From Candidatus Acidiferrales bacterium (GTDB lineage: Bacteria > Acidobacteriota > Terriglobia > Acidiferrales > UBA7541): 64,000 nucleotides of DNA. Location: contig DATBYF010000048.1 in NCBI GenBank assembly GCA_036513895.1, forward strand, positions 754 to 64,753, read 5' to 3'. Position 1 is the stretch's first letter. Every line of letters starts with the position of its first letter. The notes under the pieces were generated by a model that was given only the letters and a program-made list of their open reading frames with translations, made no database searches and was not told the origin of the DNA. Shown here piece by piece: positions 35,480 through 58,965 of the stretch. The translations under genes and the position numbers were made by a program.

Positions 35480-35587
35480 AGGCGCGAATTTTATGCTGCG
35501 GCCTCATTCAAGTCAACGCAGCACGGCTATTCAGATGTGGAATTGGTCGATTGGATTGGCAAGTAAATCCACCACGGTACGGATGTA

Positions 35588-41670: not shown

Positions 41671-41679
41671 GATTATTCG

Positions 41680-42786
41680 CTAGCTCGCCCGCACCAGAAG
41701 CGCTCCTTCGGTCACCACGGTCTCGCCGACCTGTAGGCCCTGCGTGATCTCGACGTCAGAACCGACGGCGCGGCCGGGTGTGACCGCACGTTTTTCAAAA
41801 TGGCCAGGGGATTTTTGAACGAATACAAAGACCCCGCCCGATTCTCGAAGCAGCGCGCTCGTGGGAACCTGGATTCCGTTTAAGGTAGCGCGCAAAACAC
41901 GGATGGAAGCGAACATTTCCGGCTTTAACTTTTCACCGGGATTGGGCAGAACAACGCGCAGCCTCAGAGCATGCGTGACTGGATCAATCGCGTCGCCCAC
42001 GTTGCCCACGCGGCCTTCCAAAGTTAGTCCCGGATAAGCGCTGACGGAAATCTGCGCGCGATCGCCGGACTTCACGCCGACAATGTCTTTCTCGTAGACG
42101 TCGCCAAGCACCCATACGGTGGACAGATCGGCGAGCGTATACAGTGGAGCGGGCGCATCGAGGGATTTCGAAAATTCTCCAGGTGATGCCCCGATATCGA
42201 GCACGACGGCGTCGCGCGGCGCCGTTATGGCCAGGCGATCCATTGCGCCTTCAGGCGATGCGCCCAGAACCTTGAGTTGGGTTTGAGCCCGGTTGACTTC
42301 GGATTTCGCGGTATTGTCGTCCGCAACCGCCTGCTGGTAATCCTTTTCCGCGATGGCTTTGTGCTGGTAGAGATCGGCAGCGCGTTCGAGGGCTCGGGCT
42401 TTGAGTTCCGCGTCCGTTTTCGCTTTCTGATAATCGGATCGCGCCGCGGCGACGTCGCTGCTATCGAGAACCGCGATCACCTGGCCACGATGTACGCGGT
42501 CGCCTGGCCGAACTTCCACGGATGTCACGCGTCCGCCGAGGGGCGGATAGACGCGGATTACCTTTGTCGGATCGGGCGCTACGCGGCCCGGAATTTCGAG
42601 ATAGTCGGGAACGGATTTCTTCGCGAGAACGACCGTTTGGACGCCGGATGAATTCGCCGGAATCGAGATTTCCGACGGCGCGCTGCTCGAATCGGCAGGA
42701 GGCGCAGGGGCCTGTTGCTGCTGAGCCGGGGTGCCGCAGGCAGTCATCGCAGCCGCCATGACTGCGGAGATTAGTAAGCGCCTCAT
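41680..42786 (-). CDS. RND periplasmic adaptor (membrane fusion protein), pair 1
   Basis: Track ORF 41680..42861 trimmed to ATG 42786 (MRRLLISAVMAAAMTACG, lipoprotein-type signal). It has a biotinyl-lipoyl-like plus coiled-coil plus beta-barrel pattern. Confidence 0.8.
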   Translation of the reverse strand: MRRLLISAVMAAAMTACGTPAQQQQAPAPPADSSSAPSEISIPANSSGVQTVVLAKKSVPDYLEIPGRVAPDPTKVIRVYPPLGGRVTSVEVRPGDRVHRGQVIAVLDSSDVAAARSDYQKAKTDAELKARALERAADLYQHKAIAEKDYQQAVADDNTAKSEVNRAQTQLKVLGASPEGAMDRLAITAPRDAVVLDIGASPGEFSKSLDAPAPLYTLADLSTVWVLGDVYEKDIVGVKSGDRAQISVSAYPGLTLEGRVGNVGDAIDPVTHALRLRVVLPNPGEKLKPEMFASIRVLRATLNGIQVPTSALLRESGGVFVFVQKSPGHFEKRAVTPGRAVGSDVEITQGLQVGETVVTEGALLVRAS

Positions 42787-43071
42787 GCTCGTATTTTCAT
42801 AATCGTGATGGCGTTTCAGGCTGGGTTTCAAATGATTCTCATTCCTTCGATTGCGAAGCAAAATTCGCGCCTTTAGATAGATGCGATAGATGAACCAGCG
42901 GCAAGAGATTCTTAGCCATGTACTATTACTCTACACTGAGAACATAGTTCCCTTAAAAAGAGATGTGTTGCGATGCGAAAAGACTGAGAACAAAGGAGGA
43001 ATCGCGAGGTGCCGTCTAACGAGAGGGTGAAAGTTCGGAGTTTTATTGGAACCTAGCGGCGGCGAGGCAAT

Positions 43072-46000
43072 CTACACGCTCGCTTCGAAGTCTGGCTCGA
43101 CGTCGGGAAGCCTGTCACCCTCTCGGGCGAACCATACGTAAAGAGTGGGGAGGATAAAAATGCTCATGGCCAAATTCACCATCAGGCCTCCGACGATGAC
43201 GATTGCGAATGGCCTCTGTGAATCGGAGCCAATGGCATGAGACAGCGCCGCTGGCAGCAATCCCAGCGTCGCTACGAGCATCGTCATCATGATCGGGCGG
43301 AGCCTCAGGACGGCGCCTTCAATCGCGGAGTCTTCGATTGAGTGTCCTCGGGCGCGGAGCTGGTTGATATATTCGAGCATAATCACGCCGGTTTGTACTG
43401 ACACGCCGAACAGTGCCAGGAATCCGACGCCGGACGAAACACTGAAATGGGTGCCGGTAAACAGCAGTGCCAAGAGGCCGCCGAAGCTACCCATCACAAC
43501 CGTTGCGAGAATAAGAGCGGCCCACTTTGGGGAGCGAAACATCATGTACAGGATCAGGTAGATCACCATGATCGTTAGCGGGACGATCACTAACAACCGC
43601 GCTTCGGCGCGTTTCTCACTTTCGTATTCGCCTTCCCAATCAATATGGTATCCGCGGGGCAATTGAACCTGGGCGTTTACTTTCTTGATCGCTTCCTCAA
43701 CAGCGCTGCCTAGATCGCGGCCGCGCACGCTGTACTTAATTGCGACATATCGCTCGTTTCCCTCGCGGTAGATTTCTGAAGCGCCGTCCTGTTCTTTAAT
43801 TTTGCAAAGCTGTGCGAGCGAGACCCGTTCGCCCGATGGCGACAGCAAACGAATATTCTCGATAGCTTGCTCGGTTGTGCGGTACTGCGGGAGATAGCGC
43901 AGAACGAGGTCGTACCGCGCCTCGCCTTGTAATACTTGAGTCAGAGCGGTACCGCCCGCGGCGGTTTGGATGGCATCCTGAATGTCCGATACGTTGATCT
44001 GATAGCGTGCGGCTTGCTCGCGGTCTACCTCGAAATTGATATTTGGCTGGCCGAGGGCACGAAACACGCCGAGATCCTCGATTCCCTTGACCTGGCGCAT
44101 CACGTTCACGATCTGATCGGCCTTTTCCTCGAGTACTTTCAAATCATCGCCATAAACCTTCGTTGCGAGCTCGCCCTTCACCCCGCTCACCGCTTCTTCC
44201 ATGTTGTCTTCGATGGGCTGAGAAAAACCCCAAGTCACGCCGGGGATTTTCTCCAGCTCCCGGTTCATAGCCGCAATCAGCTCATCCTTGTTTTCATGAA
44301 AGACAGGCCGCCACTCTTCTTTGGGCTTCAGATCCACGAAGAATTCGGTATTGAAAAAGCCTGTCGTATCCGTTCCATCATCTGGGCGTCCTACCTGACT
44401 CCAGCACTGAGGCACTTCGGGAAACGAACAAAGTAGAGTCCGTGCCTGATTCATCACGCGGATACCTTCGGTTGGTCCGGTGCTAGGCACAAGCGTACCG
44501 CGCACCCAGAGCGCGCCTTCATCCAAGTGAGGTAGGAATTCAGAACCGATCACGCCGCCGAACGTGAGATAGATGGCGATGAGCAAACCCGCGGCCGCTA
44601 CGCCAATCGTGACCAGACGATGCTCGATCGCCCACCTCGCAGCACTGCGATATCTCGTTTTCAAGAACTCCATCACCGGATTGCGCCATTCGCGCACGCC
44701 CTTCCCGAAGAAGAAACTGGCTAAAACCGGCGCGATGACAATGGAGAATATGATGGCGCCGAGGAGTGCAAACGTGACTGTCCATGCCATGGGCTTGAAT
44801 AGGCGACCCTCCACACGCTGCAAAGTGAAAATCGGCAAATACGCAGTGATGATAATTGCGATGGCATAAAATACAGGACGCTGGACTTCATGCGCGGCCT
44901 CGGCTATGACCTGGATCGGCTTCCTTCGATTATTGCCGTCCTGACGCTCGCTCATATGGCGGACAATGTTCTCGACCATTACCACTGCACCATCCACAAC
45001 CATTCCGAAATCCAACGCGCCAAGCGACAGTAAGTTTGCAGGAATGCCCTTCAGGCTCAGACATGTGGCGGCGAACAACAGTGAAAAAGGGATGGTGAGC
45101 GCAACGATGATCGCTCCCCGAATATTCCCGAGGAATAGAAACAGAATGATGGCGACGAGGATAATGCCTTCCGTCAGATTTCGCAGAACAGTGTGGGTTG
45201 TGAAGTGCACCAAGTCGCTGCGATCGATGAATGGAATCACCTTTACGCCGGCGGGCAGGATTCGCTCGTTCAGTTCTTTGACCTTCGCGTGAATCCCACG
45301 AAGCGCGACGTCTGCATTTGCGCCTTTACGCAAGAGCACGATTCCTGAAACCACATCGCCGTCATCGATGATTTTGCCGTCTTCGCGATGGATTGCTTTC
45401 GCAGTCTGCCCGAGCCGGATTTTCGGTCCTTGCGCGACCTGAGCAATATCCTTTACACGAATGGGAGTGCCGTTCTTCGTGACGATGACAGTGTTTTCAA
45501 TATCTTGGACGTTCTTTACAAGGCCCACTTCCCGGATATTCAGTTGTTGGAGGCCGGACTCGATAAAGCTGCCGCCGGCATTGGCGTTGTTGTTAGTAAG
45601 TTGCTGCTCCACCTGGGCGAGGCTGAGACCGTAGGAAATCAGCTTATCGGGGTCAACGCGAACCTGATACTCGCGGGTGGGACCTCCGAAGCTCGATACG
45701 TCAACCACATCCGGGACAGCTTTGAAATTCTTTTCGATGACCCAGTCTTCGATTGACTTCAACTCCATCGGGTCGTATTGGGGATTCGTACTGTGCAGGG
45801 TATAAAAATAGATTTGACCTACCGGACTCCAGTCCGTACCCATTTGAGGATTGATCCCAGGCGGCAAGGTAACCTGCGAAAGTCTTTCAAGCACTCTCTC
45901 GCGGTCCCAAGCATTCTCCTCCTCATCATCGAATATCAGCTTTAGATCCGAGAGCCCGAACAACGAAAACGATCGCAGGTGGGTTATGTGCGGGATTCCG

Positions 46001-46221
46001 CTCATCTGAATTTCGAGCGGAATGGTGACTTGCTGCTCGATTTGTTCCGCGGAGATCCCCGGCCACTGCGTGATGATCTCGACATAGTTGTCCGCCACGT
46101 CGGGATAGGCTTCTACGGGAAGTTGATGAAATGACACCGCACCCCAGCCGAATAGAAAAAGAGCGGCTGCGAGGACGAGGAGACGATTCTCTAAAGCGAA
46201 ATCGACAACCTTGCGGATCAT
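43072..46221 (-). CDS. RND efflux pump, heavy-metal-efflux (CzcA/CusA) family, pair 2
   Basis: Track ORF, 1049 aa, with GALDFGMVVDGAVVMVENI. Its start abuts the stop of the upstream adaptor gene. Confidence 0.85.
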   Translation of the reverse strand: MIRKVVDFALENRLLVLAAALFLFGWGAVSFHQLPVEAYPDVADNYVEIITQWPGISAEQIEQQVTIPLEIQMSGIPHITHLRSFSLFGLSDLKLIFDDEEENAWDRERVLERLSQVTLPPGINPQMGTDWSPVGQIYFYTLHSTNPQYDPMELKSIEDWVIEKNFKAVPDVVDVSSFGGPTREYQVRVDPDKLISYGLSLAQVEQQLTNNNANAGGSFIESGLQQLNIREVGLVKNVQDIENTVIVTKNGTPIRVKDIAQVAQGPKIRLGQTAKAIHREDGKIIDDGDVVSGIVLLRKGANADVALRGIHAKVKELNERILPAGVKVIPFIDRSDLVHFTTHTVLRNLTEGIILVAIILFLFLGNIRGAIIVALTIPFSLLFAATCLSLKGIPANLLSLGALDFGMVVDGAVVMVENIVRHMSERQDGNNRRKPIQVIAEAAHEVQRPVFYAIAIIITAYLPIFTLQRVEGRLFKPMAWTVTFALLGAIIFSIVIAPVLASFFFGKGVREWRNPVMEFLKTRYRSAARWAIEHRLVTIGVAAAGLLIAIYLTFGGVIGSEFLPHLDEGALWVRGTLVPSTGPTEGIRVMNQARTLLCSFPEVPQCWSQVGRPDDGTDTTGFFNTEFFVDLKPKEEWRPVFHENKDELIAAMNRELEKIPGVTWGFSQPIEDNMEEAVSGVKGELATKVYGDDLKVLEEKADQIVNVMRQVKGIEDLGVFRALGQPNINFEVDREQAARYQINVSDIQDAIQTAAGGTALTQVLQGEARYDLVLRYLPQYRTTEQAIENIRLLSPSGERVSLAQLCKIKEQDGASEIYREGNERYVAIKYSVRGRDLGSAVEEAIKKVNAQVQLPRGYHIDWEGEYESEKRAEARLLVIVPLTIMVIYLILYMMFRSPKWAALILATVVMGSFGGLLALLFTGTHFSVSSGVGFLALFGVSVQTGVIMLEYINQLRARGHSIEDSAIEGAVLRLRPIMMTMLVATLGLLPAALSHAIGSDSQRPFAIVIVGGLMVNLAMSIFILPTLYVWFAREGDRLPDVEPDFEASV

Positions 46222-47394
46222 CTACTGGTCCACTGAATTTTCGAATACCAGAGCGTTCAGAATTACCTTTGTTCCGGGGGTTATGCCCGACGCCACCTCC
46301 TGCATGTTGGCAGGAAGCGTATTTCCAGTGACGATTTCGACTCTCCGAAATTTGTTATCTCCTTCAGGAACGAAGACCCAGTCGCGATCACGTAAATGCA
46401 AGATTGCAGCACTGGGAATCGTGGTGTGAACTTCCTGCTTCTGTCCGTGAAAAGTAGCGGTCGCAAACATGCCAGGGCGGATGAATCCGGGATTGCCGAC
46501 TTCAATTCTGACTTTCGATGCGCGAGTGGCTGGATCGAGAACGGCGCCAATGTTGCTAATTGTGCCCTTCAGAACCTTGTCAGGATATGCGTTCAATTTG
46601 ATATCGGCGGTCTCGCCCAGGCGAACGTTTGGCAAAGCATTTTCGTACACATCGCAAACGATCCAAACGAAGGACAAATCGGAGATCGTGAACGGGTTCT
46701 TGGCGGACAAGCTCTGTACGCCCGCTGCGTTGGTCACTTGCTGGTCGGTAATCACCCCCGAAATGGGCGCGTAAATATCGACTATTCCGGTGGGATGATC
46801 GGGATCGTTACCGAGGAGTCGAAGATGTTCCTCGGTGGTTTCGACGGCGACCTTCGCGTCGTCTTCGGCGTCTTGAGCGATTTCAAGTTCCGACTCCGGG
46901 ATGGCGCCGTGGGCGAAGAGATCTTTGGAGCGAGTGATTTGCTTGCGCGCGAGAAGTTCGTCGGCAACGGCTTTGCGGTAATCGGAGTAACCGCCGGAAA
47001 CATCGTCACTTCGGACGCGCAACAAGAGTTGACCCTTGTGCACCGAGTCTCCTAGCCGCGCGCGAATGTCGACAACGCGACCGGAGGCCAGCGAAATCAC
47101 GGGCACCGTCCGTGCAACATCCGGGCTTACCGCACCTGTGGCTGACAATTGCGAAGCGGCATTGTGCCCGACTGCGGTAAATAAGGGGAATTGCTCAGGA
47201 TGGTCGACCTGAAACACGTTCGAATCCTGCTGGTTTTCGACCTGAGCGAGCGGCGGCGCCTCGGCTGCCGGGTCGCTCTCGGATGAACCACAACCCGCCA
47301 GACACAAAGTCAGTGCGCTCAGAAAAAGTGCACGAGCGATTGCCGGAAAAATGCTGGGTCCGGCATACGCGTGAAAGAAACACGCTTGCTTCAT
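46222..47394 (-). CDS. RND periplasmic adaptor (membrane fusion protein), pair 2
   Basis: Track ORF, 390 aa, with lipobox LCLAGC and an MFP domain pattern. Confidence 0.8.
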   Translation of the reverse strand: MKQACFFHAYAGPSIFPAIARALFLSALTLCLAGCGSSESDPAAEAPPLAQVENQQDSNVFQVDHPEQFPLFTAVGHNAASQLSATGAVSPDVARTVPVISLASGRVVDIRARLGDSVHKGQLLLRVRSDDVSGGYSDYRKAVADELLARKQITRSKDLFAHGAIPESELEIAQDAEDDAKVAVETTEEHLRLLGNDPDHPTGIVDIYAPISGVITDQQVTNAAGVQSLSAKNPFTISDLSFVWIVCDVYENALPNVRLGETADIKLNAYPDKVLKGTISNIGAVLDPATRASKVRIEVGNPGFIRPGMFATATFHGQKQEVHTTIPSAAILHLRDRDWVFVPEGDNKFRRVEIVTGNTLPANMQEVASGITPGTKVILNALVFENSVDQ

Positions 47395-49179: not shown

Positions 49180-49288
49180 AGGTCGAATTGGAGTTCAATG
49201 CGTTTCCAGCTTTTCTGGCGCCCGGGTGAATTGTCATTCGGGTGCCCGCTTTTTTAGGCACGTTTTCGCACTCCCGCCGCATACATCG

Positions 49289-49318
49289 TTGACAATTTCA
49301 ACAACACACTCGTAGAAT
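49289..49318 (+). promoter_or_regulatory. Candidate sigma-70-type promoter of the sigma-54 activator gene
   Basis: TTGACA (49289-49294), 18-nt spacer, TAGAAT (49313-49318), about 35 nt upstream of the TTG start at 49354. Confidence 0.35.
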
Positions 49319-49353: not shown

Positions 49354-50775
49354 TTGCGCCGTTCCGTGTCTGCGGAGCCCAATTTGACGCCTGCCGGCAC
49401 ATCCAATCCCAAAGTCGCAGTGATTGATGCGGACGAATCGTTCCGCTCCGGGATTTCCGCGGACCTCGGAGACGAATTCGAAATTCTCGAAGGCGATGAT
49501 TTCGAAGCCGCGTACCACCATATTCAGGAAAGCGGACTGGATGTGCTTCTGCTCGGCTTGCCCTTGCCTTCGGGCGGGGTTCGCGAAAGCATTCAGCTCC
49601 TCAACCGGCTCGCCGAGAGTGAAATTGATACGCTCGTCATCGTACTGAACGAAGACAATAACAAGGCTCCGGCGCTCAAATTGATCGAGGCAGGATGCTA
49701 CGACTACTTCGTCAAGCCGGTGGATACGGACGTCGTTCGCGCCTTGATGCGCCGGGCGATCAAGAAGCTCCATATCCAGCGCGAAAATCGCATTTTGCGC
49801 GAAGAGGTTTCTCGCAAACAGTTTGGCGGCGATCTCATCGGCTCGACCGATTCGATGCGCGACCTGCTCGAAACCATTCGGAGGATGGCTCGCGCTTCCA
49901 CCAGCGTGATCATCCGCGGCGAAAGCGGAACCGGAAAAGAGTTGGTCGCCCGTGCGCTCCATGAGCAGGGTCCGCGGCGGACGAAACCGTTCATCAGCGT
50001 AAACTGCGCGGCGCTGCCTGAAACTCTCATGGAGGCTGAACTTTTCGGCTACGAACGCGGAGCTTTCACTGGTGCTGTGGCCACGAAAGAAGGCCGGATC
50101 GAGCTGGCTAACCATGGCACATTATTCCTCGATGAAATCGCGACGCTCACGCCCGCGCTGCAATCGAAACTCCTCAGAGTGCTCGAGGATCACGCGCTGA
50201 TCCGGCTCGGTGGCAAGAAGTCCATCAAAGTTGATTTCCGGCTGGTCAGCGCGACGAATGAAAACCTTGAGGAAATGGCTAAGACTGGCAGATTCCGCGA
50301 GGATCTCTACTACCGGATCCACGTGGTGCCGATTTTTATTCCGCCGTTGCGCGAGCGCGTGGAAGATATTCCTCTGCTCATCGACTATTTCGTAAGCGTT
50401 TACTGCGCGGCGAATCGCACGCCAGCGAAACGCATTGCCGAAGATGCCCTTCAGGCGCTGAAGCGCTACGCATGGCCTGGAAACGTTCGCGAGCTTCAGA
50501 ACGTCGTGCAGCGGTTTGTTCTGATGACTGATTCGGACATGATCAATTTGAAGGACCTTCCGAGCGATGTTGTCCAAGCTGCTGGCAAGGGGACCAAGGG
50601 CCGGTTCCGACTGCCGTCAAGCGGCATCAAGCTCAATGAGGAACTCGACGCATTCGAGCGCCAATGGGTGGAAACGGCGCTGGCTCAGGCCGATCAGGTG
50701 AAGTCGGAGGCCGCGCGGTTGCTTGGCGTCGATAGGAACCGAATCAATTATCTCTGCCGGAAGTACGATCTTTAG
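49354..50775 (+). CDS. Sigma-54-dependent enhancer-binding protein (NtrC/Fis family) with atypical receiver-like N-domain
   Basis: Track ORF, 473 aa. Its AAA+ core has GESGTGKE (Walker A), LFLDEI (Walker B) and the sigma-54 contact loop ERGAFTGA. The C-terminal Fis-type HTH is EAARLLGVDRNRINYLCRKY. The start (TTG 49354) is uncertain. Confidence 0.9.
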   Translation: MRRSVSAEPNLTPAGTSNPKVAVIDADESFRSGISADLGDEFEILEGDDFEAAYHHIQESGLDVLLLGLPLPSGGVRESIQLLNRLAESEIDTLVIVLNEDNNKAPALKLIEAGCYDYFVKPVDTDVVRALMRRAIKKLHIQRENRILREEVSRKQFGGDLIGSTDSMRDLLETIRRMARASTSVIIRGESGTGKELVARALHEQGPRRTKPFISVNCAALPETLMEAELFGYERGAFTGAVATKEGRIELANHGTLFLDEIATLTPALQSKLLRVLEDHALIRLGGKKSIKVDFRLVSATNENLEEMAKTGRFREDLYYRIHVVPIFIPPLRERVEDIPLLIDYFVSVYCAANRTPAKRIAEDALQALKRYAWPGNVRELQNVVQRFVLMTDSDMINLKDLPSDVVQAAGKGTKGRFRLPSSGIKLNEELDAFERQWVETALAQADQVKSEAARLLGVDRNRINYLCRKYDL

Positions 50776-50784
50776 CCTGCCGTC

Positions 50785-50818
50785 GTTGAAAAAACAAACA
50801 CGCGATTAAAACTTCAAC
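50785..50818 (+). promoter_or_regulatory. Upstream dyad GTTGA-N24-TCAAC, module 1 (candidate enhancer/UAS)
   Basis: The same dyad, with identical 24-nt A-rich spacing, occurs at the same distance (~115 nt) upstream of each of the three -24/-12 promoters. Confidence 0.45.
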
Positions 50819-50914
50819 ACATCCGGGACGTGCAGCGAATTGGTACTACAACCCGGCTCAGTCCTAAGTGGCTTAAATCGAATAGAATAGGCCCGCGTGG
50901 CGCGACTGCGAGTT

Positions 50915-50930
50915 TGGCATGAGGTGTGCA
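50915..50930 (+). promoter_or_regulatory. Sigma-54 (-24/-12) promoter, module 1
   Basis: TGGCATgaggtGTGCA. GG and GC are at the canonical spacing of TGGCAC-N5-TTGCA. It lies ~55 nt upstream of sORF1 and next to an EBP gene. Confidence 0.7.
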
Positions 50931-50984
50931 ATATAGATATGCGTCGCCCACGAGGGCAAACCCAAATCGAGGAGATTCACGAAA

Positions 50985-51068
50985 ATGACAACGAAAAAGA
51001 CCCAACTGAAGTCGGCCAAGAAGAGCAACAAGATCGTCGCGTTGACGACCCACCTTCCCAAGCCGTAA
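50985..51068 (+). CDS. Small Lys-rich peptide, 27 aa: MTTKKTQLKSAKKSNKIVALTTHLPKP (unannotated sORF 1)
   Basis: Below the ORF-track size cutoff. It has a GAGGAG SD 10 nt upstream, ATG...TAA, and is followed by a strong terminator. Two paralogs in the window differ by synonymous or conservative changes and in-frame indels. Confidence 0.7.
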   Translation: MTTKKTQLKSAKKSNKIVALTTHLPKP

Positions 51069-51116
51069 GATCGCGGCCCTGTCTCGCTGCAAGCGAGAAG
51101 CGGCCACACGAAATCT

Positions 51117-51154
51117 GCGGGGTTGCCAAGCACTGGCAACCCCGCTATTTTTTT
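51117..51154 (+). terminator. Rho-independent terminator of sORF 1
   Basis: Perfect 12-bp stem gcggggttgcca/tggcaaccccgc, 5-nt loop, then T7 run. Confidence 0.85.
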
Positions 51155-51216
51155 GTGCTGACGAGTCGCTGAAAAACAATCGAGAGTTGCTATATCTTTG
51201 ATCAATTGGAGGGCAA

Positions 51217-52035
51217 TTGTCTCAATCGCGAAGGAAACGAAAAGCGCCGCGCCGGTCGCCGTCCTACGAAGCCATCGGACAATTTTACGATTCTCTTTGG
51301 CTGGATAATCCGCGGGCGTGGACAGCTGCCCGGAGCCGGCTGCTGGAACCGATTGTTTCTGGGGCGCGGCGAGTTTGCGAACTCGGATGCGGTACCGGCG
51401 TAACGGCAATGGAATTCGCGCGCCGCGGACTAAAGGTTTTCGCGCTCGATTATTCTCGCGAAATGTGCCGCGTCACCCGCGAAAAGGCTCTTGCGGAAGG
51501 CCTCGACGTCCAGGTTGCTCGCGGCGATATGCGAACGTTCCGTTTGCCGGTGAAGGTAGATCTCGTCACTTCTGAATGGGGAGTCATCAATCATTTGCGG
51601 CGTAAGGCCGAGCTAGCGCAAACATTTCGCGCGGTCGCCCGCGCGGTAAAGCCTGGAGGCTACTTTTTTTTCGATCTTCATCAGCAAAAACTATACGAAG
51701 AGGGTTGGCCCAAGGCAGTAATTGGCGATGGAGTGACCGCCGAAGAGGGGAAGAAATTCTTCGCGGCTCAGCACGGCGGATATGACCGAAAGAACGGCAA
51801 AGGCTGGACGGAAATAACCATTTTCGTTCGCAGGGCCGGCGGCCTGTGGCAGCGCCGCGGGGAACGCATCGAAGAAATTTGCTGGTCTCAAGGAGAGATT
51901 GTTCGAGACCTCAAGCGCGCCGGGTTTCAACTCCTGCGCGTCTGTGATTTCGCCGATATCTGTGCTGCGCCAAGTCCGAAAAGAGGGCCCGACGGCATGC
52001 GTACGATGTATCTCGCCCGGCTGAAAAGCAGGTAG
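51217..52035 (+). CDS. Class I SAM-dependent methyltransferase
   Basis: Track ORF, 272 aa, TTG start with GGAGG just upstream. Motif I is VCELGCGTGVTAMEF, followed by an acidic loop FALDYS and motif post-I/II DLVTSEWGVINHL. Confidence 0.8.
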   Translation: MSQSRRKRKAPRRSPSYEAIGQFYDSLWLDNPRAWTAARSRLLEPIVSGARRVCELGCGTGVTAMEFARRGLKVFALDYSREMCRVTREKALAEGLDVQVARGDMRTFRLPVKVDLVTSEWGVINHLRRKAELAQTFRAVARAVKPGGYFFFDLHQQKLYEEGWPKAVIGDGVTAEEGKKFFAAQHGGYDRKNGKGWTEITIFVRRAGGLWQRRGERIEEICWSQGEIVRDLKRAGFQLLRVCDFADICAAPSPKRGPDGMRTMYLARLKSR

Positions 52036-52105
52036 ACGCATGCTCCTGGTGTAGGGCGTGGTACCCCTCCCGGGCGCAACACGAGTTTGAATTTCGGGAT
52101 GTATC

Positions 52106-52139
52106 GTTGAAAAAGCGAACGCGAGTTGAAAATTCCAAC
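52106..52139 (+). promoter_or_regulatory. Upstream dyad GTTGA-N24-CCAAC, module 2 (candidate enhancer/UAS)
   Basis: Same architecture as module 1, with one mismatch in the right arm. Confidence 0.4.
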
Positions 52140-52235
52140 GCATTTGACGTATTGGCTGGGTTCGTACTAAAACCAAGGCTGCTGCTAAGCTATGTAGATT
52201 CAGTATGTTACGCCGTATCGGTTCGACCGCGAGTT

Positions 52236-52251
52236 TGGCACGAGATGTGCA
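52236..52251 (+). promoter_or_regulatory. Sigma-54 (-24/-12) promoter, module 2
   Basis: TGGCACgagatGTGCA with canonical GG/GC spacing. Confidence 0.7.
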
Positions 52252-52305
52252 ATATAGATATGCGTCGCCCACGAGGGCAAACCCAAACCGAGGAGATTCA
52301 CGAAA

Positions 52306-52389
52306 ATGGCAACGAAAAAGACCCAACTGAAGTCGGCCAAGAAGAGCAACAAGATCGTCGCGTTGACGACCCACCTTCCCAAGCCGTAA
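52306..52389 (+). CDS. Small Lys-rich peptide, 27 aa: MATKKTQLKSAKKSNKIVALTTHLPKP (unannotated sORF 2)
   Basis: Same SD, frame and stop as sORF 1. The single coding difference is T2A. Confidence 0.7.
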   Translation: MATKKTQLKSAKKSNKIVALTTHLPKP

Positions 52390-52437
52390 GATCGCGGCCC
52401 TGTCTCGCTGCAAGCGAGAAGTGGCCACACGAAATCT

Positions 52438-52473
52438 GCGGGGCTGCCAAGGCTGGCAGCCCCGCAATTTTTT
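52438..52473 (+). terminator. Rho-independent terminator of sORF 2
   Basis: 12-bp stem gcggggctgcca/tggcagccccgc plus a T6 run. Relative to terminator 1, the T-to-C change in the 5' arm is matched by an A-to-G change in the 3' arm (compensatory). Confidence 0.85.
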
Positions 52474-52545
52474 GTACGCGTGAGATAGTTCATCTCTTAG
52501 AGCGTATCCCCTGATCCTTCTCAGCCTTCGCCGACACTCCGTGAC

Positions 52546-52579
52546 GTTGAAAAAATAAACGAAAGATGAAAACGTCAAC
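52546..52579 (+). promoter_or_regulatory. Upstream dyad GTTGA-N24-TCAAC, module 3 (candidate enhancer/UAS)
   Basis: Same dyad and spacing as module 1, although the flanking sequence has diverged. Confidence 0.45.
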
Positions 52580-52672
52580 ATGTGCTCGATTTTTGTAGGC
52601 GAGTACTACAACCCGGCTGACTTTAAGTCACCTAATTTCAACGGTGTAACGCGGGCCATCTGCAGTTGCGTT

Positions 52673-52688
52673 TGGCACCGGGCGTGCA
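52673..52688 (+). promoter_or_regulatory. Sigma-54 (-24/-12) promoter, module 3
   Basis: TGGCACcgggcGTGCA with canonical GG/GC spacing. Confidence 0.7.
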
Positions 52689-52742
52689 TCCTTTCCAAGC
52701 GTTGCCCACGAGGGCAAACCCACAGCGAGGAGATACACGAAA

Positions 52743-52823
52743 ATGGCAAAAAAGACCCTGAAATCTGGCAAGAAGGCCAACAAAGTTGTAGCGTTGACCG
52801 CCCACGTGCCCGTGAAGCCGTAA
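52743..52823 (+). CDS. Small Lys-rich peptide, 26 aa: MAKKTLKSGKKANKVVALTAHVPVKP (unannotated sORF 3, diverged paralog)
   Basis: It has a GAGGAG SD. Against sORF 1 there are 5 synonymous changes, 6 conservative replacements (T/A, A/G, S/A, I/V, T/A, L/V) and three indels that are all multiples of 3 nt. That pattern indicates selection on the reading frame. Confidence 0.65.
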   Translation: MAKKTLKSGKKANKVVALTAHVPVKP

Positions 52824-52871
52824 TGGCCCGGCTCTGGCTCGCCTCAGGCGAGCGGGGCGACGAACGAAATC

Positions 52872-52909
52872 TGCGGGGTTTGCCGCAAGCGGCAGCCCCG
52901 CATTTTTTT
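52872..52909 (+). terminator. Rho-independent terminator of sORF 3 (also at the 3' end of the convergent M50-HlyD gene)
   Basis: GC-rich stem gcggggtttgccgc/gcggcagccccgc followed by a T8 run. The stop of the minus-strand gene is at 52917. Confidence 0.8.
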
Positions 52910-52916
52910 TGAAGAT

Positions 52917-55058
52917 CTACCAGATTTGCGAATGAACCCAGCGCCACACGCCGGCAGCAGCCTGCCACGCAAATGGACGATGCTTCCCGCTGATTTTTGC
53001 AGTGCCGGTCATTCCCTCGATCAAGCTACCGTCTGTATTCGGGAAAACCATCTCCACTGCAAAGTAATTCATCACTTCCTGGCCGCGTCTTTCCACTTTG
53101 TTCGGTTGTGAAATCGGGCGATCGGCAGCGGCAGCAGGAAGAATTCGCTCGACGCGGCCAGCGGAGGTTCGAAACGGCTGATCGGATACTTTTAGTTTCA
53201 CGGGCGCGCCCACGGCTACTTCCCCGACCTCCCAGTCGTGGACGAGAATTCGAGCCCGCATCTCGGAACGGTCAACCACTCGTACAAATTCATCTCCCTG
53301 GTTAAGGAAATCTCCCTCGTGCGGTTCGATATCGCCCTCGACGACGATTCCATGGATCGGGGATCTGAGCGCCAAGCCAGCGATGTGCGATCGCACGAGG
53401 GAAAGCTCTGAGGACAGTCGCGCGCGCTCATCCTCAGCGCGTGCCGCCTCGCCTCGCGAGGTGTGCTGTTCTGCAATACGGAGCGCTCCCTCTATATTGC
53501 CGAGTTGGCTCGCGAGAGAAGCGGCCCGCGAGTCAAGTTCCGGATTCTTCAGCTCGGCAAGCACATCGCCAGCTCGCACCTCCTGGCCCGAACGGACCAA
53601 GATATTCGCGAGCTGGCCGCCAACGGGCGATCGAATTTCCGCATTCTGTCCTGGCTCCAGAATGAATTCGCTCGAGACCTTACTCGAGAAAGGGGGCACG
53701 AATAGCACGAGCGCGACGACAGCAACGAACACCTGTTGCGCGCGAGTGAGTTTCCATTTCAAGTAAGCCTCCCTGATGCTCCAGTACCATGCGCGAATGC
53801 GCGGGATTTGCTGCTGAACGCGACTTCGGAGGAGAAGAAATAGGGCCAGCGCCGTAGCAAAGTAGCCCCAGTCACCAAGTACGCTGACAAAAATATTATT
53901 CACAAAGATTAAGGCGATCACGAGAACCGCGACGCCGTAAACCATCGCGGTGGTGCCGAACGCCAGAAATATGCGGCGCTGCCTGCGGCTTGCGGCGGGC
54001 AATTCGACTTTGCGACGCAGCAAATACTTCTGCCACCAAGCCTGCGCGAATTCAATTGAATCTTCCCGAAGAGAATCAATCTGAACGAATTGCGCGAGCG
54101 CGTAGTACCCATCAGCCTTAATCAGCGGGTTGAGGTTGACGGCGATACCCGCGATGCCTGTGAAGAGCAAAGTTTTGTAGGCCAAATCATTCACCAGCGA
54201 TCCGGGCAGCGTAAACGCCCAAACCAAGGTGGCGAGCGCGCACAGCAGAAGTTCCACCCAAATTCCCGCGAATATGGTCAATTGCCGCGGCATTGTCGTA
54301 TCGAAAATCAATATGTCGGTGGTGTCCGTGTAAAAAGCCGGCGTGAAGTAAATGAGAATGAAACCCATCTGGGGAACTTCTCCGCCGTAGTGTTTGCAGG
54401 TGAGGCCGTGCGCAAATTCGTGGATGCCACCGACGGCCAGCATGATGATCCAGAAGGCCCAGAGGTCGTACGCGCTTTTGTTTGAGAACGAATACAAGGC
54501 GGCGCTGTCCTGCTGAATGCGGTACCAATCGCCCGCAAGAATGGCCATTGCAGCAATGAACGCGGCGATGCAGAAAATGATAAAGCCGCGCGTGTAAATC
54601 CAGCCCAAGTAGGGGTCAAGCCACGCGAGGGTCTTGTCCGGATTCCATGCCTTGAATTGGATATAGAGCAGGCTAGATTCTGTGCGGCCTTTACGCTCAT
54701 CGCGAATTCGCTCGAGCATGGCGAGATTTTTCTCGCCGACGGTACGGACCCAGAGGTTCGATTCGACCGTATCCAGGAAATCGAGCACGCTCGTCTCGTC
54801 GAGTGAAGAATCGGGATGGCGCGCGTTCATTTCTTCCGCTACTTCAGCTGCTGTTCGCGTTCCATCGCAGAGCGTCAGTAGCTCGTATTCGGTCGGGCCA
54901 TAGCGGTTATATGAGGCAGTATCCGGATCTTTAATGACGAAACTAGCTTTTCCGGCGACCTGCTGCGCGCTGATTTTCAAATCTTCGCGGAGCTTGGGGC
55001 GGTGAAGTCCTTTTGCCAGGACGCTCGAAATCTGCAGGCTGGTTGGCCCGTATCGCAT
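52917..55058 (-). CDS. Polytopic M50 (site-2-protease-like) zinc metalloprotease fused to a C-terminal HlyD/MFP-like domain
   Basis: Track ORF, 713 aa, with HEFAH (HExxH) inside a TM segment and NLNPLIKADGYY (NxxPxxxxDG third-ligand motif). There are several TM helices. The last ~270 aa have a barrel-sandwich/coiled-coil pattern (VGGQLANILVRSGQEVRAGDVLAEL...LRSPIHGIVV). Confidence 0.8.
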   Translation of the reverse strand: MRYGPTSLQISSVLAKGLHRPKLREDLKISAQQVAGKASFVIKDPDTASYNRYGPTEYELLTLCDGTRTAAEVAEEMNARHPDSSLDETSVLDFLDTVESNLWVRTVGEKNLAMLERIRDERKGRTESSLLYIQFKAWNPDKTLAWLDPYLGWIYTRGFIIFCIAAFIAAMAILAGDWYRIQQDSAALYSFSNKSAYDLWAFWIIMLAVGGIHEFAHGLTCKHYGGEVPQMGFILIYFTPAFYTDTTDILIFDTTMPRQLTIFAGIWVELLLCALATLVWAFTLPGSLVNDLAYKTLLFTGIAGIAVNLNPLIKADGYYALAQFVQIDSLREDSIEFAQAWWQKYLLRRKVELPAASRRQRRIFLAFGTTAMVYGVAVLVIALIFVNNIFVSVLGDWGYFATALALFLLLRSRVQQQIPRIRAWYWSIREAYLKWKLTRAQQVFVAVVALVLFVPPFSSKVSSEFILEPGQNAEIRSPVGGQLANILVRSGQEVRAGDVLAELKNPELDSRAASLASQLGNIEGALRIAEQHTSRGEAARAEDERARLSSELSLVRSHIAGLALRSPIHGIVVEGDIEPHEGDFLNQGDEFVRVVDRSEMRARILVHDWEVGEVAVGAPVKLKVSDQPFRTSAGRVERILPAAAADRPISQPNKVERRGQEVMNYFAVEMVFPNTDGSLIEGMTGTAKISGKHRPFAWQAAAGVWRWVHSQIW

Positions 55059-55067
55059 CGGGAGTCC

Positions 55068-55982
55068 TTATGGCTTGGGCGATGCTGCGCCAGGGGGCCA
55101 CGCAACGCGGACGGCCATACCGGGGCTCAGCGCGGAAAGGCCGGAGCCGGTAAGCTGCATGGTCACGTCGTAGCTGTCGCTGGCCGGATCAACCATGGGA
55201 CTTACTTTAACGATTCGCGCCGTATACGAATGATCGGGATTCACGACGGAGAAAACCTGCGTGCTGTTGCCAATCTTGGGCCTTCCTCCCGAAGCTTCGG
55301 GCACTTGAACGTGAACCTCGAGCGGCTCGAGTTGGCTAATTCGGAAGCTCGGATCATCCTTAGCGACGTTCTGTCCCTGGCGCACGTAGCGGCGTACGGC
55401 GATGCCGGAGAACGGTGCCCGAAATTGAGTTTGTTCGACGTCGAACTTCAAACTCTGTATCTGCGCTTCACTACTCTTCACCAGCGCCTTGCAGCTCTCC
55501 GCATCGAACGCCGTCGCCTTTTCTTCGAATTGGGCCTCTTCGAGGTCTGCTTCGCTGCTCAGCCCGGCTTGCCGCAGGAGTTCCTGACGGCGCAGATTCG
55601 CTTCCTTGGCTTGGTGCTCGGCTTGTTTGTACTTCAGATTATTCTGCGCAACTTGTAAATCGGCCTGAGCCTTCTGCAACTCCATCTGGAGTGAGCGGTC
55701 ATCGAGGCGCCCAAGAATTTCGCCGGCCTTCACCTTTTGGCCTTCCTCTACATTGACTTGCTGGACGATCCCTTCGCGTTGCGCGCGAACATCCACTTCA
55801 TGCTCGACAGTGAGCACGCTGAGAATTTTCCCGAGGTTGGGTGCGCCTGAATCTGCGGGGCTCGGGCTTGGAGACGTTACACGCGCTGGCGCGGCAGCAG
55901 AGGGCGTCGCGGCATTCTCGCCGCCGCAGCCCGCCGTACCCAATGCCAAAACGCCAACTAAAGTCCACGTTCTACGTCTCAT
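55068..55982 (-). CDS. HlyD/RND-adaptor-type membrane fusion lipoprotein
   Basis: Track ORF 55068..56009 trimmed to ATG 55982 (MRRRTWTLVGVLALGTAGC lipobox). It has the lipoyl-like motif GIVQQVNVEEGQKVKAGEILGRLDD, a coiled coil, and FRAPFSGIAV. Confidence 0.8.
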   Translation of the reverse strand: MRRRTWTLVGVLALGTAGCGGENAATPSAAAPARVTSPSPSPADSGAPNLGKILSVLTVEHEVDVRAQREGIVQQVNVEEGQKVKAGEILGRLDDRSLQMELQKAQADLQVAQNNLKYKQAEHQAKEANLRRQELLRQAGLSSEADLEEAQFEEKATAFDAESCKALVKSSEAQIQSLKFDVEQTQFRAPFSGIAVRRYVRQGQNVAKDDPSFRISQLEPLEVHVQVPEASGGRPKIGNSTQVFSVVNPDHSYTARIVKVSPMVDPASDSYDVTMQLTGSGLSALSPGMAVRVAWPPGAASPKP

Positions 55983-56021
55983 GATCGCCCCTAAAACAAA
56001 ACTGCACATGGCTCGCTGCGG

Positions 56022-58445
56022 CTACGGCAGCCAGACCCAGATCTTCTCCCACAGCCAGCGAAATGGTGAACGAAAAAGCGCGTACCCGATAGGATACCAG
56101 CCTGTGCCGAACCATCCACCGTTCGCGCGAATGCGAGCACGGCCTGCCATTCCGTCCCGTGCCCGCATGCCGGCATTATCGAATACTGCCCGGATCACAA
56201 AAAATTCTTCGCCTTCGATGGCCTCGGAACGAACCCCCACGCGGTCCACGGTGCCTTTGAATGTTTGGGTAGGGTACGCGTTTAGCTTAAGGGCCACACT
56301 TCTTCCGGCGCGGATAAGATTCAAATCCGTCTCAGGAACATTCATATCAATTGCCATCTGTTGTTGCTGGACGATTTCGCCGAAGGCTTGCCCTTCCGCC
56401 AACATGGCGCCCGTTTTTTCTTCGATCTTGGGGGTCACAACGACGCCGTCAATTGGGGCACGTAACTGCGCATCCGCCACCCGCTGTTCCTCTAGCGTTA
56501 CATCCGCTTCTGCAGCTTCGGCGCGGAGGCGCGCCTGAGATGCAACCGTCAGGTCGCGCCTAAATTCAGCTTCTGCGAAATCGTGCTGCGCGAGGGCAAG
56601 GTCAGATTTCGCGCGCTCAAGCTTGACGCGATCCTCACCGTCATCGAGTTGAGCCAATGTTTGACCGCGCGTGACAACGTCTCCTTCATGCACAAACACG
56701 CGCCTGACAATGCCCCCGGCAACGGCGCTCACTATGCGGCGATCCGCGGGAACAACTGTTGCGTTGGTGCTGACGCGAACCGGCCACGGAACGATCGTAA
56801 GCACCATCGCGGCGAGTGCTGCTTTCCAGCCATACTCAAACCAGCGCGACTGTGCGCCCGCGCCAAAAAACTGCTGCCTTTTTTCCGCCAGAGGCTGGAG
56901 AAATCCAGCCAGAGGCACTTGCTGATAGAGTTGCGCGTTTCGAATTGCCACGGTGGTCTGATTCGCGAGAATTGACACCGTTTCGCGCTGGTTATCACTG
57001 AGAAATTCCGGATCGCCGTTGAGCATGCAGAGGACGCCGACGGTGCCTTGATCGTCGCGCAGCGGGAGCGCGTAGAAGCCGCCGTATCCATGCTCGTCGA
57101 GAAAGCCAGAAGCCACATCGCGCGCAGATTCGGGATCAGTTTCCCAACCTTCCTCGGATTTGTCGGCGCGGACCGCAGCTTCCTGGGTTGAAACCCACTC
57201 CAGAAGTTTCCGCAACGCATCCATCTCATCGGTCTTCGGCACTTCCTCCTCGCCTGACACCGCGCCAAGAACGAACTTATTGCGATCAAAAAATCCGATG
57301 ACGCACTGGTCAAACGTGATGACGGTGCCGGCCTGTTGCGCTACCGTCGTCAAGACATGATCGAGATCGAGCGTCGAGGTGATGGCCTGGCTAATTTTAA
57401 GAAGCGCGTCGAGCTCGTGCAGTTTCCGTTCGGATTCGAGAAGATTGGCGTTATTCAGCGCCACCGCTGCCTGCTCGCTGATGCTCGAAAGAAAGAAAAC
57501 ATCATCTTCGGTGAATGCCGTTCCGTCCTCTTTGTTTATGAGCTCGATTACGCCGATGACCTGCTCCTCTTTACGTAACGGCGCACAAATGATGGTCTGA
57601 ATCTGGAATTCGCCTCCAGCCTTAATGCGCTCAGCGAGTGATTCATCGTCAGCGGGATGTTCAATAAGTTTCGCGTTGCCGCTGCGTGCCGCGTCGGCCA
57701 GATGTCCAGACTCCACCGAGATGGTCGTGCCTTCTTCGACGGTTGGGTCCTCGCCATCTTTCTGAGCGAGTGTCAGCTCATCTCCATTGCCGCTAACCAG
57801 CCATAAGTTGCAGGCCTGGGCGTGAAGAATGTCGCGCATTTTGCCGGCCACGATGGGGGTGAGTTCGCTGAGCTCGACTGTGGAATTAAAAATTCTGCTG
57901 ATGTCGTAGAGAGATGTGAGGCGTTCGATGGTTGTGAGCTGGTTATCACGTTCGACATCAGCTTCAACGAGCAACCCGTCGGCCTGTGAGGCCAGCCTCG
58001 CCGCAGTTTCCAGGAATTCGGCGTCTTCAGCAGTAAATCCGCCCTTTTTGTTCAGAGCTTCGACGACGCCGGCCGTGCCTTCCATTCCGGGAAACGGAAC
58101 GAGCAGCACCGATTGAATCGCTTTGTGCTGAGAAGCGGAAAAGTGGGTGAGGGAATCGGCGTCAATTTCCTTGCCGGAAGCCCGATAGACAGAGGATTGC
58201 TCGAAGGCAGCGGCAAGGACTCCATCCGCAACGCGATCGCTCGCTGGTGCAAGCTTTTCGTCAGGCTGAGCCCATCGCGCCCGGCTCCCAAGCTCGCCAT
58301 CTTCCCCTTCGGCCAACCACAGAAAAACGGCCCGGGCACCAATCGCGGTGCCCACTCGAGCGACAAAGGTTCTGCTCAACGTCGAACGATCTCGGCAGGC
58401 AAAAAGGACGCTCGCGAGCTCAACGAGCGCCGATGAATTCTCCAT
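56022..58445 (-). CDS. Triple-GAF domain protein with one TM helix and a C-terminal HlyD/MFP-like domain
   Basis: Track ORF 56022..58550 trimmed to ATG 58445 (MENSSALVELASV...). It has three GAF-like units, each ending in a ...FTxxDxxFL...A.ALxNAxL type pattern. These are followed by a TM helix (AALAAMVLTIVPWP) and GGIVRRVFVHEGDVVTRGQTLAQLDD...LRAPIDGVVV. Confidence 0.75.
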   Translation of the reverse strand: MENSSALVELASVLFACRDRSTLSRTFVARVGTAIGARAVFLWLAEGEDGELGSRARWAQPDEKLAPASDRVADGVLAAAFEQSSVYRASGKEIDADSLTHFSASQHKAIQSVLLVPFPGMEGTAGVVEALNKKGGFTAEDAEFLETAARLASQADGLLVEADVERDNQLTTIERLTSLYDISRIFNSTVELSELTPIVAGKMRDILHAQACNLWLVSGNGDELTLAQKDGEDPTVEEGTTISVESGHLADAARSGNAKLIEHPADDESLAERIKAGGEFQIQTIICAPLRKEEQVIGVIELINKEDGTAFTEDDVFFLSSISEQAAVALNNANLLESERKLHELDALLKISQAITSTLDLDHVLTTVAQQAGTVITFDQCVIGFFDRNKFVLGAVSGEEEVPKTDEMDALRKLLEWVSTQEAAVRADKSEEGWETDPESARDVASGFLDEHGYGGFYALPLRDDQGTVGVLCMLNGDPEFLSDNQRETVSILANQTTVAIRNAQLYQQVPLAGFLQPLAEKRQQFFGAGAQSRWFEYGWKAALAAMVLTIVPWPVRVSTNATVVPADRRIVSAVAGGIVRRVFVHEGDVVTRGQTLAQLDDGEDRVKLERAKSDLALAQHDFAEAEFRRDLTVASQARLRAEAAEADVTLEEQRVADAQLRAPIDGVVVTPKIEEKTGAMLAEGQAFGEIVQQQQMAIDMNVPETDLNLIRAGRSVALKLNAYPTQTFKGTVDRVGVRSEAIEGEEFFVIRAVFDNAGMRARDGMAGRARIRANGGWFGTGWYPIGYALFRSPFRWLWEKIWVWLP

Positions 58446-58629
58446 GGCCTTCCCTGGCTGGAATTCTGAAACACCCGTACCGGCTGCTTGAGTGACGGGC
58501 GAATGCCCGCGGGGTGCGAAACGCGGGCAGCCTAACAAATGCGGATGCAAGCGTCAATACGGCCCCTTGGTGTCTCAGGGCTTGATTGCACTGCACTTTT
58601 CAGCTAGTTTGACTGGGCGCGAGGCGCAG

Positions 58630-58965
58630 ATGGAAATTCTGATACGCAAGGCAGGCACCGCCACGATTCTCGATCTGAACGGACCACTTCGACTGGGTGA
58701 TTCGGAGCAGGCGTTCAAGGAGCAAATCCAGAAGTTGGTGGATGCCGGGACGCCTCACATCGCGGTGAATCTATCCGGCGTGACCGAACTCGATAGCTCA
58801 GGTATCGGAGCGCTTGTTCGATCGTTCACCACCGTCAAGCGGGCTGGCGGCAAATGCATCTACTATGCCCCAACACAGCGCATAAAAATGCTTCTCAAGA
58901 TGGTCAGGCTCGATAGCGTGCTCGATATTGTGGATGACGAGGCCGGCGCTCTCGCCCGCGTGTGA
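58630..58965 (+). CDS. STAS-domain protein (anti-sigma-factor antagonist, SpoIIAA-like)
   Basis: Track ORF 58492..58965 trimmed to ATG 58630, giving 111 aa. It reads ...ATILDLNGPLRLGDSEQAFKEQIQKLVDAG...NLSGVTELDSSGIGALV... with the conserved DSSG Ser site. Confidence 0.8.
   Translation: MEILIRKAGTATILDLNGPLRLGDSEQAFKEQIQKLVDAGTPHIAVNLSGVTELDSSGIGALVRSFTTVKRAGGKCIYYAPTQRIKMLLKMVRLDSVLDIVDDEAGALARV

Follow-up and report, generated by a model that had tools for sequence, protein, structure and literature searches.

The Candidatus Acidiferrales DNA considered here (64,000 nucleotides of contig DATBYF010000048.1, hereafter the window) contains three -24/-12 elements of the type recognised by sigma-54, an alternative sigma factor. 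With high confidence, these motifs are functional sigma-54 promoters, each of which would head its own short, activator-controlled and translated peptide unit. An initial annotation, made from the letters of the window, had already read the elements as sigma-54 promoters, and this reading is supported by sequence comparison within the window and across 80 related loci. More tentatively, at somewhat less than even confidence, the promoters, the activator and the genes around them may form an undescribed system, widespread in Acidobacteriota, in which a non-phosphorylatable sigma-54 activator commands a battery of micro-peptides that are matured and exported by machinery of a new kind, an M50 protease that has a leader-recognition domain (RiPP recognition element, RRE), is fused to a tripartite-pump adaptor and cooperates with two further adaptor proteins, and that act as a novel class of signals or cationic antimicrobials.

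Three self-contained units in the window

The three elements are the following (TSS, transcription start site).

50915-50930, plus strand: -24/-12 element of unit 1, TGGCATGAGGTGTGCA, with GG at 50916-17 and GC at 50928-29; predicted TSS at about 50941
52236-52251, plus strand: -24/-12 element of unit 2, TGGCACGAGATGTGCA; predicted TSS at about 52262
52673-52688, plus strand: -24/-12 element of unit 3, TGGCACCGGGCGTGCA; predicted TSS at about 52699

All three are exact matches, letter for letter as annotated at 50915, 52236 and 52673, to the strict sigma-54 form searched as TGGCAYNNNNNKTGCW (that is, TGGCAY-N5-KTGCW) on both strands of the 64 kb. The strict form occurs nowhere else in the window, all its matches lie on the plus strand, 0.14 are expected, and none of 100 shuffled sequences reaches three. 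The GG and GC dinucleotides are 10 nt apart in each site, as in TGGCAC-N5-TTGCA, so the canonical register described initially holds, and the sole deviation from that consensus is a G for T at -15. The spacers are all different (GAGGT, GAGAT and CGGGC). The distance from the C of the -12 element to the ATG is 55 nt in every case, and the open reading frames (ORFs) that follow have 27, 27 and 26 codons; each site thus precedes an ORF of fewer than 30 codons next to an enhancer-binding-protein gene (49354-50775), as had been stated.

Alignment of the units shows conserved islands, namely the upstream dyads, the -24/-12 element, a leader hairpin, the Shine-Dalgarno sequence, the ORF and the terminator, amid diverged flanks, and this island-wise conservation is already a footprint. 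Every unit is self-contained, spans about 210 nt, has a 44-nt leader with a Shine-Dalgarno sequence and carries a conserved box, GTACTAcAACC, that is specific to the clade of the window. The remaining parts of the units are listed below.

50785-50818, plus strand: upstream activating sequence of unit 1, two 15-bp dyads, GTTGAAAAAACAAAC (50785) and GATTAAAACTTCAAC (50804), whose starts are 19 bp apart
50946-50974, plus strand: 5' leader of unit 1, with the hairpin GCCCACGAGGGC (50946-50957) and the Shine-Dalgarno sequence GAGGAG (50969-50974)
50985-51068, plus strand: peptide gene 1, MTTKKTQLKSAKKSNKIVALTTHLPKP, 27 aa
51075-51155, plus strand: 3' double hairpin of unit 1, whose second hairpin (51117-51145) and T-run form an intrinsic terminator; z = -6.9
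52106-52139, plus strand: upstream activating sequence of unit 2, dyads GTTGAAAAAGCGAAC (52106) and GTTGAAAATTCCAAC (52125)
52306-52389, plus strand: peptide gene 2, MATKKTQLKSAKKSNKIVALTTHLPKP, 27 aa
52396-52474, plus strand: 3' double hairpin and terminator of unit 2, stem at 52437-52466; z = -6.3
52546-52579, plus strand: upstream activating sequence of unit 3, dyads GTTGAAAAAATAAAC (52546) and GATGAAAACGTCAAC (52565)
52743-52823, plus strand: peptide gene 3, MAKKTLKSGKKANKVVALTAHVPVKP, 26 aa, a diverged paralogue
52831-52910, plus strand: 3' double hairpin and terminator of unit 3, GC stem at 52872-52902 followed by a T-run; z = -2.7

The dyads of unit 1 lie at -130 and -111 relative to the T of TGG, and the composite of dyad and promoter occurs in the window at the three sites and nowhere else. 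The leader hairpin, GCCC-N4-GGGC, lies 3-6 nt past the predicted TSS in each unit (50946-50957, 52267-52278 and 52704-52715). Between -30 and the terminator, units 1 and 2 show about 98% identity, and their upstream halves have diverged save for the dyads; unit 3 has diverged along its whole length with the GG/GC register kept, and its ORF is separated from the other two by three in-frame 3-nt indels.

One further site of the window, TGGCATACTATATGCA (63703-63718, plus strand), has the GG-N10-GC spacing and at the same time forms a palindrome (GCATA...TATGC), so that it may be either a sigma-54 promoter or an operator. Its distance is about 45 nt 5' of the first in-frame ATG (63764) and about 75 nt 5' of an MKM start, the ORF behind it begins like an FAD-oxidoreductase N-terminus (DVLIVGGGPAGL), and there is no GTTGA-N5-TCAAC dyad upstream of it.

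Conservation of promoter, dyad and peptide gene across related loci

The comparative set consists of 80 genomic loci, nearly all from Acidobacteriota, that were retrieved with a profile of 14 homologues of the protease-adaptor encoded beyond unit 3. This 713-aa protein is 100% identical to a database entry from a Candidatus Acidiferrales metagenome-assembled genome and has more than 1,100 homologues; at least 564 relatives were confirmed among the 599 pattern-matching stretches listed. According to tblastn searches with the window proteins, the core of the loci is a co-directional set of genes for a GAF-HlyD protein (75/80), an HlyD adaptor (78/80) and the protease-adaptor (80/80). The activator gene is found in 70-73 of the 80 loci (61-97% identity), convergent to this operon, and it always points towards one to five small ORFs located between its own stop codon and that of the protease gene, a region referred to below as the zone. 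A CsgG-like gene was detected by tblastn in only four of the loci.

Peptide genes were sought from both ends of the unit. A regular expression for Lys-rich ORFs, which is independent of the promoter model, returned 57 peptide genes in 38 loci and the window, nearly all of them between the stop codons of the activator and protease genes, and 49 of the 57 have GG-N10-GC 40-60 nt 5' of the ATG (shuffled sequences: mean 6.5, maximum 13). The search from the promoter side returned 140 TGG-N9-TGC[AT] sites in the zone. At least one dyad, defined as GTTGA-N5-TCAAC (background 0.12 per 185 nt), is present at -140 to -105 of 132 of these sites, and two dyads 19 bp apart at 68; a Shine-Dalgarno sequence and a small Lys-rich ORF follow at a fixed distance behind 130, and dyad and ORF occur together at 125. 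Counted by complete units, 19 loci have one, 35 have two, nine have three, and single loci have four and five. In the zone, TGGC-N8-TGC[AT] has a density of 1.09 per kb on the strand of the peptide genes and 0.029 per kb on the opposite strand, against 0.069 per kb elsewhere.

The 124 unique sites with dyad and ORF define the family consensus gtTTGGc-N7-tTGCA. The columns that the search pattern does not force agree with the sigma-54 consensus (T-1 in 114, C+3 in 108, T+11 in 107 and A+15 in 119 of the 124), whereas the seven spacer columns are nearly uninformative, which bears out, in the family as in the window, the proposal that the spacer is free to vary while the two elements are kept. 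The composite of dyad and promoter is found 132 times inside the zones and 16 times outside, and at least five of those 16 mark further peptide genes. Some 74 genomes retain the motif although the identity of their protease genes is just 50-85%. The assignment of one promoter to each peptide gene, proposed for the window, stands as the family-wide rule, with one to five promoters per locus, but it is not without exceptions, since a few loci (L040, L066, L045 and L077) have promoterless peptide genes 3' of a promoter-bearing one. Lastly, the GCCC/GGGC stem of the leader, including forms extended by T/A and C/G pairs, is present in about 50 of 121 family leaders with almost no covariation, and it could be either a stabilising 5' stem-loop or an element that acts at the DNA level.

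The activator and the weighing of alternative readings

The activator gene and the elements in front of it are arranged as follows.

49288-49302, plus strand: perfect dyad GTTGACAATTTCAAC, overlapping the -35 of the promoter in the next line
49289-49318, plus strand: sigma-70-like promoter TTGACA-18-TAGAAT (11/12), in front of the activator gene
49354-50775, plus strand: sigma-54 enhancer-binding protein with a degenerate receiver, an AAA+ domain with GAFTGA and a Fis-type helix-turn-helix

The domain assignment is based on matches to Sigma54_activat (232 bits), an AAA lid, HTH_8 and, weakly, Response_reg. The GAFTGA motif of the sigma-54-contact loop (DNA 50059-50076, residues 236-241) is invariant in 70 of 70 orthologues, and because activators with this motif function solely with sigma-54, the presence of rpoN in the genome is expected. 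Only the closest relatives (L002, L003, L004 and L058) have a dyad at the position of the one on the activator's own -35 element; this dyad suggests a site of autoregulation and supports the dyad as the binding site of the activator. The export operon that begins with the GAF-HlyD gene appears to lie outside the regulon, as its upstream region lacks both elements as a rule (a sigma-54 site in 4 of 70 loci and a dyad in 2 of 70).

On the analogy of NtrC and PspF, an oligomer of the activator would bind the dyads (centres at about -149 and -130 from the predicted TSS), would loop to the sigma-54 holoenzyme waiting in the closed complex and would open that complex by ATP hydrolysis. Peptide mRNA would consequently be made only when the activator is active, with a near-zero basal level and a steep response. 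Sigma-54 promoters are silent without their activator, so the tight, signal-dependent control initially proposed is plausible as regards the promoter; the nature of the signal route is another matter. Gly68 of the activator stands opposite the phospho-acceptor D54 of Aquifex NtrC1 in the alignment with 1NY5, no histidine kinase is linked to the activator gene, and with no phospho-acceptor Asp in 70 of 70 orthologues the route is not a canonical two-component relay. Judged by these features, the activator is an orphan with a pseudo-receiver that would be set by other means than classical aspartate phosphorylation, and the conserved STAS- and GAF-domain proteins of the locus are candidate inputs.

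Several observations weigh against the sigma-54 reading or against parts of the system built on it. The consensus with two mismatches allowed is not enriched in the window (17 matches against 17.4 expected), so that comparison of the motif with its background favours the promoters in the strict form alone and the signal is confined to that form and its context. The three copies are paralogous modules and not independent occurrences; the initial statement that three such sites in 1.8 kb are highly non-random is correct as a count against expectation, but it does not describe three separate events, and since the copies are paralogous, the significance comes from the divergence seen in copy 3 and in the upstream halves of copies 1 and 2, together with the comparison across genomes. 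An IHF consensus between the dyads and the promoter is present at only 2 of 125 sites, and an IHF site was accordingly rejected as part of the unit. The phospho-acceptor position of the activator is Gly or Ala in all 70 orthologues, and a search of the window and of the sequence of the related loci for an RpoN-box motif found none. The AlphaFold model of the whole protease-adaptor is of low confidence (predicted local distance difference test, pLDDT, 60; predicted template modelling score, pTM, 0.36), and the window encodes no energy-coupled transporter of the inner membrane. Lastly, the -12 region of the window clade reads GTGCA instead of TTGCA, and with the G at -15 the promoter comes to contain a short inverted repeat, GCAC-N5-GTGC; the repeat is absent from other family members, and it could also be an operator for a repressor or an activator.

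Among the alternatives, it is very unlikely that the units are sigma-54-driven non-coding small RNAs (sRNAs) of the Qrr type in which the short ORFs are incidental. The layout does recall that of luxO and qrr, with short monocistronic units that have their own sigma-54 promoter and a strong terminator near the activator gene, and the 5' and 3' hairpins of the units are conserved. The ORFs, however, evolve as coding sequence: over the 18 codon columns of 25 unique leaders of subfamily A, variable columns number 7, 0 and 13 at codon positions 1, 2 and 3, codon differences are synonymous in 1106 cases against 662 non-synonymous, and on these codon patterns the peptides are translated. Moreover, the indels between units are in frame, a Shine-Dalgarno sequence and an ATG stand at a constant distance in 130 of 140 units, and the amino-acid motif is kept despite nucleotide drift. 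The whole window contains no Rfam family at the gathering score, and a relaxed search (E<=1) of 50700-53000 returned nothing beyond sub-threshold, terminator-like matches.

It is likewise highly improbable that the motif serves a dimeric transcription factor as its operator and that a sigma-70-type polymerase transcribes the peptide genes. The inverted repeat, which the window copies share with L058 through their GTGCA, resembles NtrC-type half-sites, but the family element TTGG(C)-N7/8-TTGCA has no dyad symmetry (for example TGGCGATTGCTTTGCA), its invariant bases are exactly the GG and TGCA of sigma-54, and a separate, clear dyad is available about 110-130 bp upstream, at enhancer distance. 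Furthermore, no sigma-70-like hexamer pair was found on the plus strand upstream of the three peptide ORFs. The near-identity of units 1 and 2 from -30 onwards and the chance level of the relaxed consensus might suggest that a recent tandem duplication alone produced the three matches and that they have no promoter function. This reading can practically be dismissed given the divergence of these two units upstream of -30 save for the dyads, the intact GG/GC register of the diverged unit 3, the conservation in about 74 genomes and a 16-fold strand-specific enrichment.

The peptides, the convergent operon and the closest known systems

The products of the sigma-54 units are peptides of 21-60 aa across the family (median 29 aa) that are 26% Lys and almost devoid of Cys, Asp and aromatic residues. 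Their N-terminal 18 or so residues are conserved as M-x-KK-x-[LV]-KK-x-KK-L-x3-KPL, with V-A-L in the window clade at the place of the majority K-P-L, whereas the remaining 4-40 residues are hypervariable, at times internally repeated, and end in P, V, I, K or other residues. Repeated tails occur among L059, L063, L078, L072, L006, L007, L031 and L055 (LQRAS six times, GAGVLQR three times and GALTRP three times), and some tails of the same group repeat x-P-L-M/T motifs after the first K-P-L; one such precursor might yield several short products. Two subfamilies usually share a locus, an activator-proximal one of the form MAKKTLKKAKKLEATKPL... and a protease-proximal one of the form MAKAKPVKKGKKLGSVKPL... 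or ...KKLEKKxxL... (for example in L008, L010, L013, L021, L033, L045, L057 and L077), and the window clade has a single type. Neither the window peptides nor 30 diverse members match a Pfam or NCBIfam family, and the 26- and 27-aa peptides of the window are not in a collection of 15 billion proteins, where longer relatives appear only as hypothetical proteins.

The genes that share the locus with the three units are listed below.

51217-52035, plus strand: class I S-adenosylmethionine (SAM) methyltransferase, an accessory gene inside the peptide zone; best named match daptide methyltransferase, 58 bits
52917-55058, minus strand: RRE/PqqD-like, M50 protease and HlyD fusion protein of 713 aa, with a C-terminal HlyD/MexA-like adaptor
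55068-56009, minus strand: HlyD-family periplasmic adaptor, 78 of 80 loci
56022-58550, minus strand: protein with three GAF domains, which are cytoplasmic, and an HlyD adaptor; first gene of the operon, 75 of 80 loci
58492-58965, plus strand: STAS-domain protein, divergent from the GAF-HlyD operon, a single anti-sigma-antagonist-like domain, 64 of 80 loci; its true start is probably at about 58630

The fusion protein fits the architecture class of RRE-fused site-2 (M50) leader peptidases, as judged from its sequence and predicted structure. Its N-terminus has a PqqD-like match (residues 59-104, E 5e-4), an RRE assignment that is weak by sequence score alone, and the N-domain is predicted to adopt a beta3-alpha3 fold (pLDDT 70-85). 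The best named relative is daptide_HExxH (NF041824, 166 bits over residues 33-409, cut-off 300), and the HExxH and NxxPxxxxDG motifs are invariant in the 14 homologues (H213, E214, H217, N308, P311, D316 and G317). The adaptor part alone gave meaningful fold matches, to MexA, MacA and EmrA.

By homology to MpaP and from the linkage of the genes, the conserved N-terminus of the peptides (M-x-KK-x-LK-x-KK-x3-K/V-P/A-L) is most likely a leader that the RRE-like N-domain would bind; the M50 protease would then cut near the K-P-L or V-A-L motif, and transit of the product through the envelope would fall to the three HlyD-type adaptors. A cut directly behind K-P-L or V-A-L would release TTHLPKP and TAHVPVKP. 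The promoter type that drives the substrates probably does not drive the processing operon. The peptides are probably secreted, and the mature peptide may be a signal or a cationic antimicrobial. A cluster for a MacB/LolD-type ABC (ATP-binding cassette) ATPase lies near the STAS gene in about 45 of the 80 loci (for example L002, about 2010-2880), the window not being one of them, and at 3307-5784 of L014 there is a MacB/FtsX-type permease besides this cluster, which may be the missing energy-coupled exporter. The methyltransferase is found in the zone of 7 of the 80 related loci, in either orientation (L003, L015, L024, L039, L051, L056 and L058), and may be an optional tailoring enzyme.

The promoters have their closest counterpart in NtrC-type promoters such as E. 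coli glnAp2, with which they share the GG/GC -24/-12 element, two adjacent dyads more than 100 bp upstream, a nearby gene for an AAA+ GAFTGA activator with a C-terminal Fis-type helix-turn-helix and, in the window clade, a site on the activator's own sigma-70-like promoter. Unlike those promoters, the present ones belong to an activator that has no phospho-acceptor Asp and no linked kinase, they have no IHF-like site, their dyad differs from the NtrC site, and their targets are peptide genes of 21-60 codons with their own promoters. In the LuxO-Qrr system of Vibrio, several short paralogous genes answer to one sigma-54 activator, and every gene has a sigma-54 promoter and a terminator to itself. 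The likeness extends to the size of the paralogous units (about 100-200 nt) and to the single promoter and strong terminator of each, whereas the products here are translated peptides and not Hfq-dependent sRNAs, and the units cluster by an operon for export and processing. Membership in the LuxO/Qrr group was rejected: there is no Qrr match in Rfam, and the activator, at 297 bits, stays below the LuxO cut-off of 800.

As for processing, the RRE-fused site-2 protease MpaP removes the leader of daptides, a class defined by a precursor ending in Thr and by genes for an oxidative decarboxylase, an aminotransferase and a DUF-RRE protein (10.1101/2023.03.08.531785). Daptide loci resemble the present ones in the N-terminal RRE-like domain fused to an M50 protease, in the occasional methyltransferase and in several short tandem precursors with a conserved leader and a variable remainder; they differ in that here an HlyD adaptor is fused to the protease as well, control is by sigma-54 and the peptides belong to an Acidobacterium, a diderm host. 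The locus was not assigned to the class, as the peptides have no Thr ends, no gene for an oxidative decarboxylase, an aminotransferase or a DUF-RRE protein is among the neighbours, and the scores are below the NCBIfam cut-offs (NF041824, 166 of 300 bits; NF041820, 58 of 175 bits). Peptide signals dependent on an M50 protease, and epipeptides (Eep with SHP or sex pheromones, YydH with YydF), likewise have tiny precursors, a site-2-type protease and hypervariable mature parts, but their precursors are hydrophobic or signal-peptide-like, or are epimerised by radical SAM enzymes, whereas those described here are Lys-rich with essentially no Cys or Asp, and the export components here are HlyD-type adaptors. 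A YydF-type assignment was also discarded, with no radical SAM gene in the neighbourhood within the window or in the conserved clusters and with 34 bits against a cut-off of 225 for NF058609 (YydH/LiaK).

The promoters themselves are ordinary textbook sigma-54 elements, and sigma-54 enhancers, RRE-fused leader peptidases and multi-copy short sigma-54 units are all known parts; their combination appears to be undescribed in searchable papers and family libraries. No description of the locus or of its regulation was found in the literature, with most subscription journals outside the coverage of the search, and a search for rpoN in Acidobacteria found nothing on Acidobacterial sigma-54. Acidobacteria, a poorly studied phylum, rank with the most abundant soil bacteria and with those hardest to approach genetically, and the locus offers one activator, one DNA site, defined targets and a linked candidate route of peptide secretion. 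It also suits the study of how the switching of a sigma-54 activator can do without phosphorylation of an aspartate. In addition, the joining of an HlyD adaptor to an intramembrane protease that would recognise leaders suggests that cleavage may be directly coupled to transit through the envelope, possibly a new principle of export.

Two Ser/Thr protein kinases in tandem, both containing PD40/WD40 beta-propeller repeats (32582-38473 and 38539-47394, both on the minus strand) and two RND (resistance-nodulation-division) efflux pumps with their adaptors are encoded upstream of the locus, and no evidence ties the pumps or the kinases to it. PADLOC reported generic AAA+ and methyltransferase similarity only and no match for the core proteins. 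The 26-27-codon genes of the window are under the length that common gene callers accept, and public gene calls skip the peptide genes at 5524-6406 of L081 (NCBI JBARDP010000672.1 in GCA_049795215.1, a 7.3-kb copy of the locus), a contig that bears a 100% identical protease-adaptor gene. Promoter and dyad together provide a signature by which such genes can be located without recourse to anything but DNA, and which recovered about 130 peptide genes in the roughly 74 genomes.

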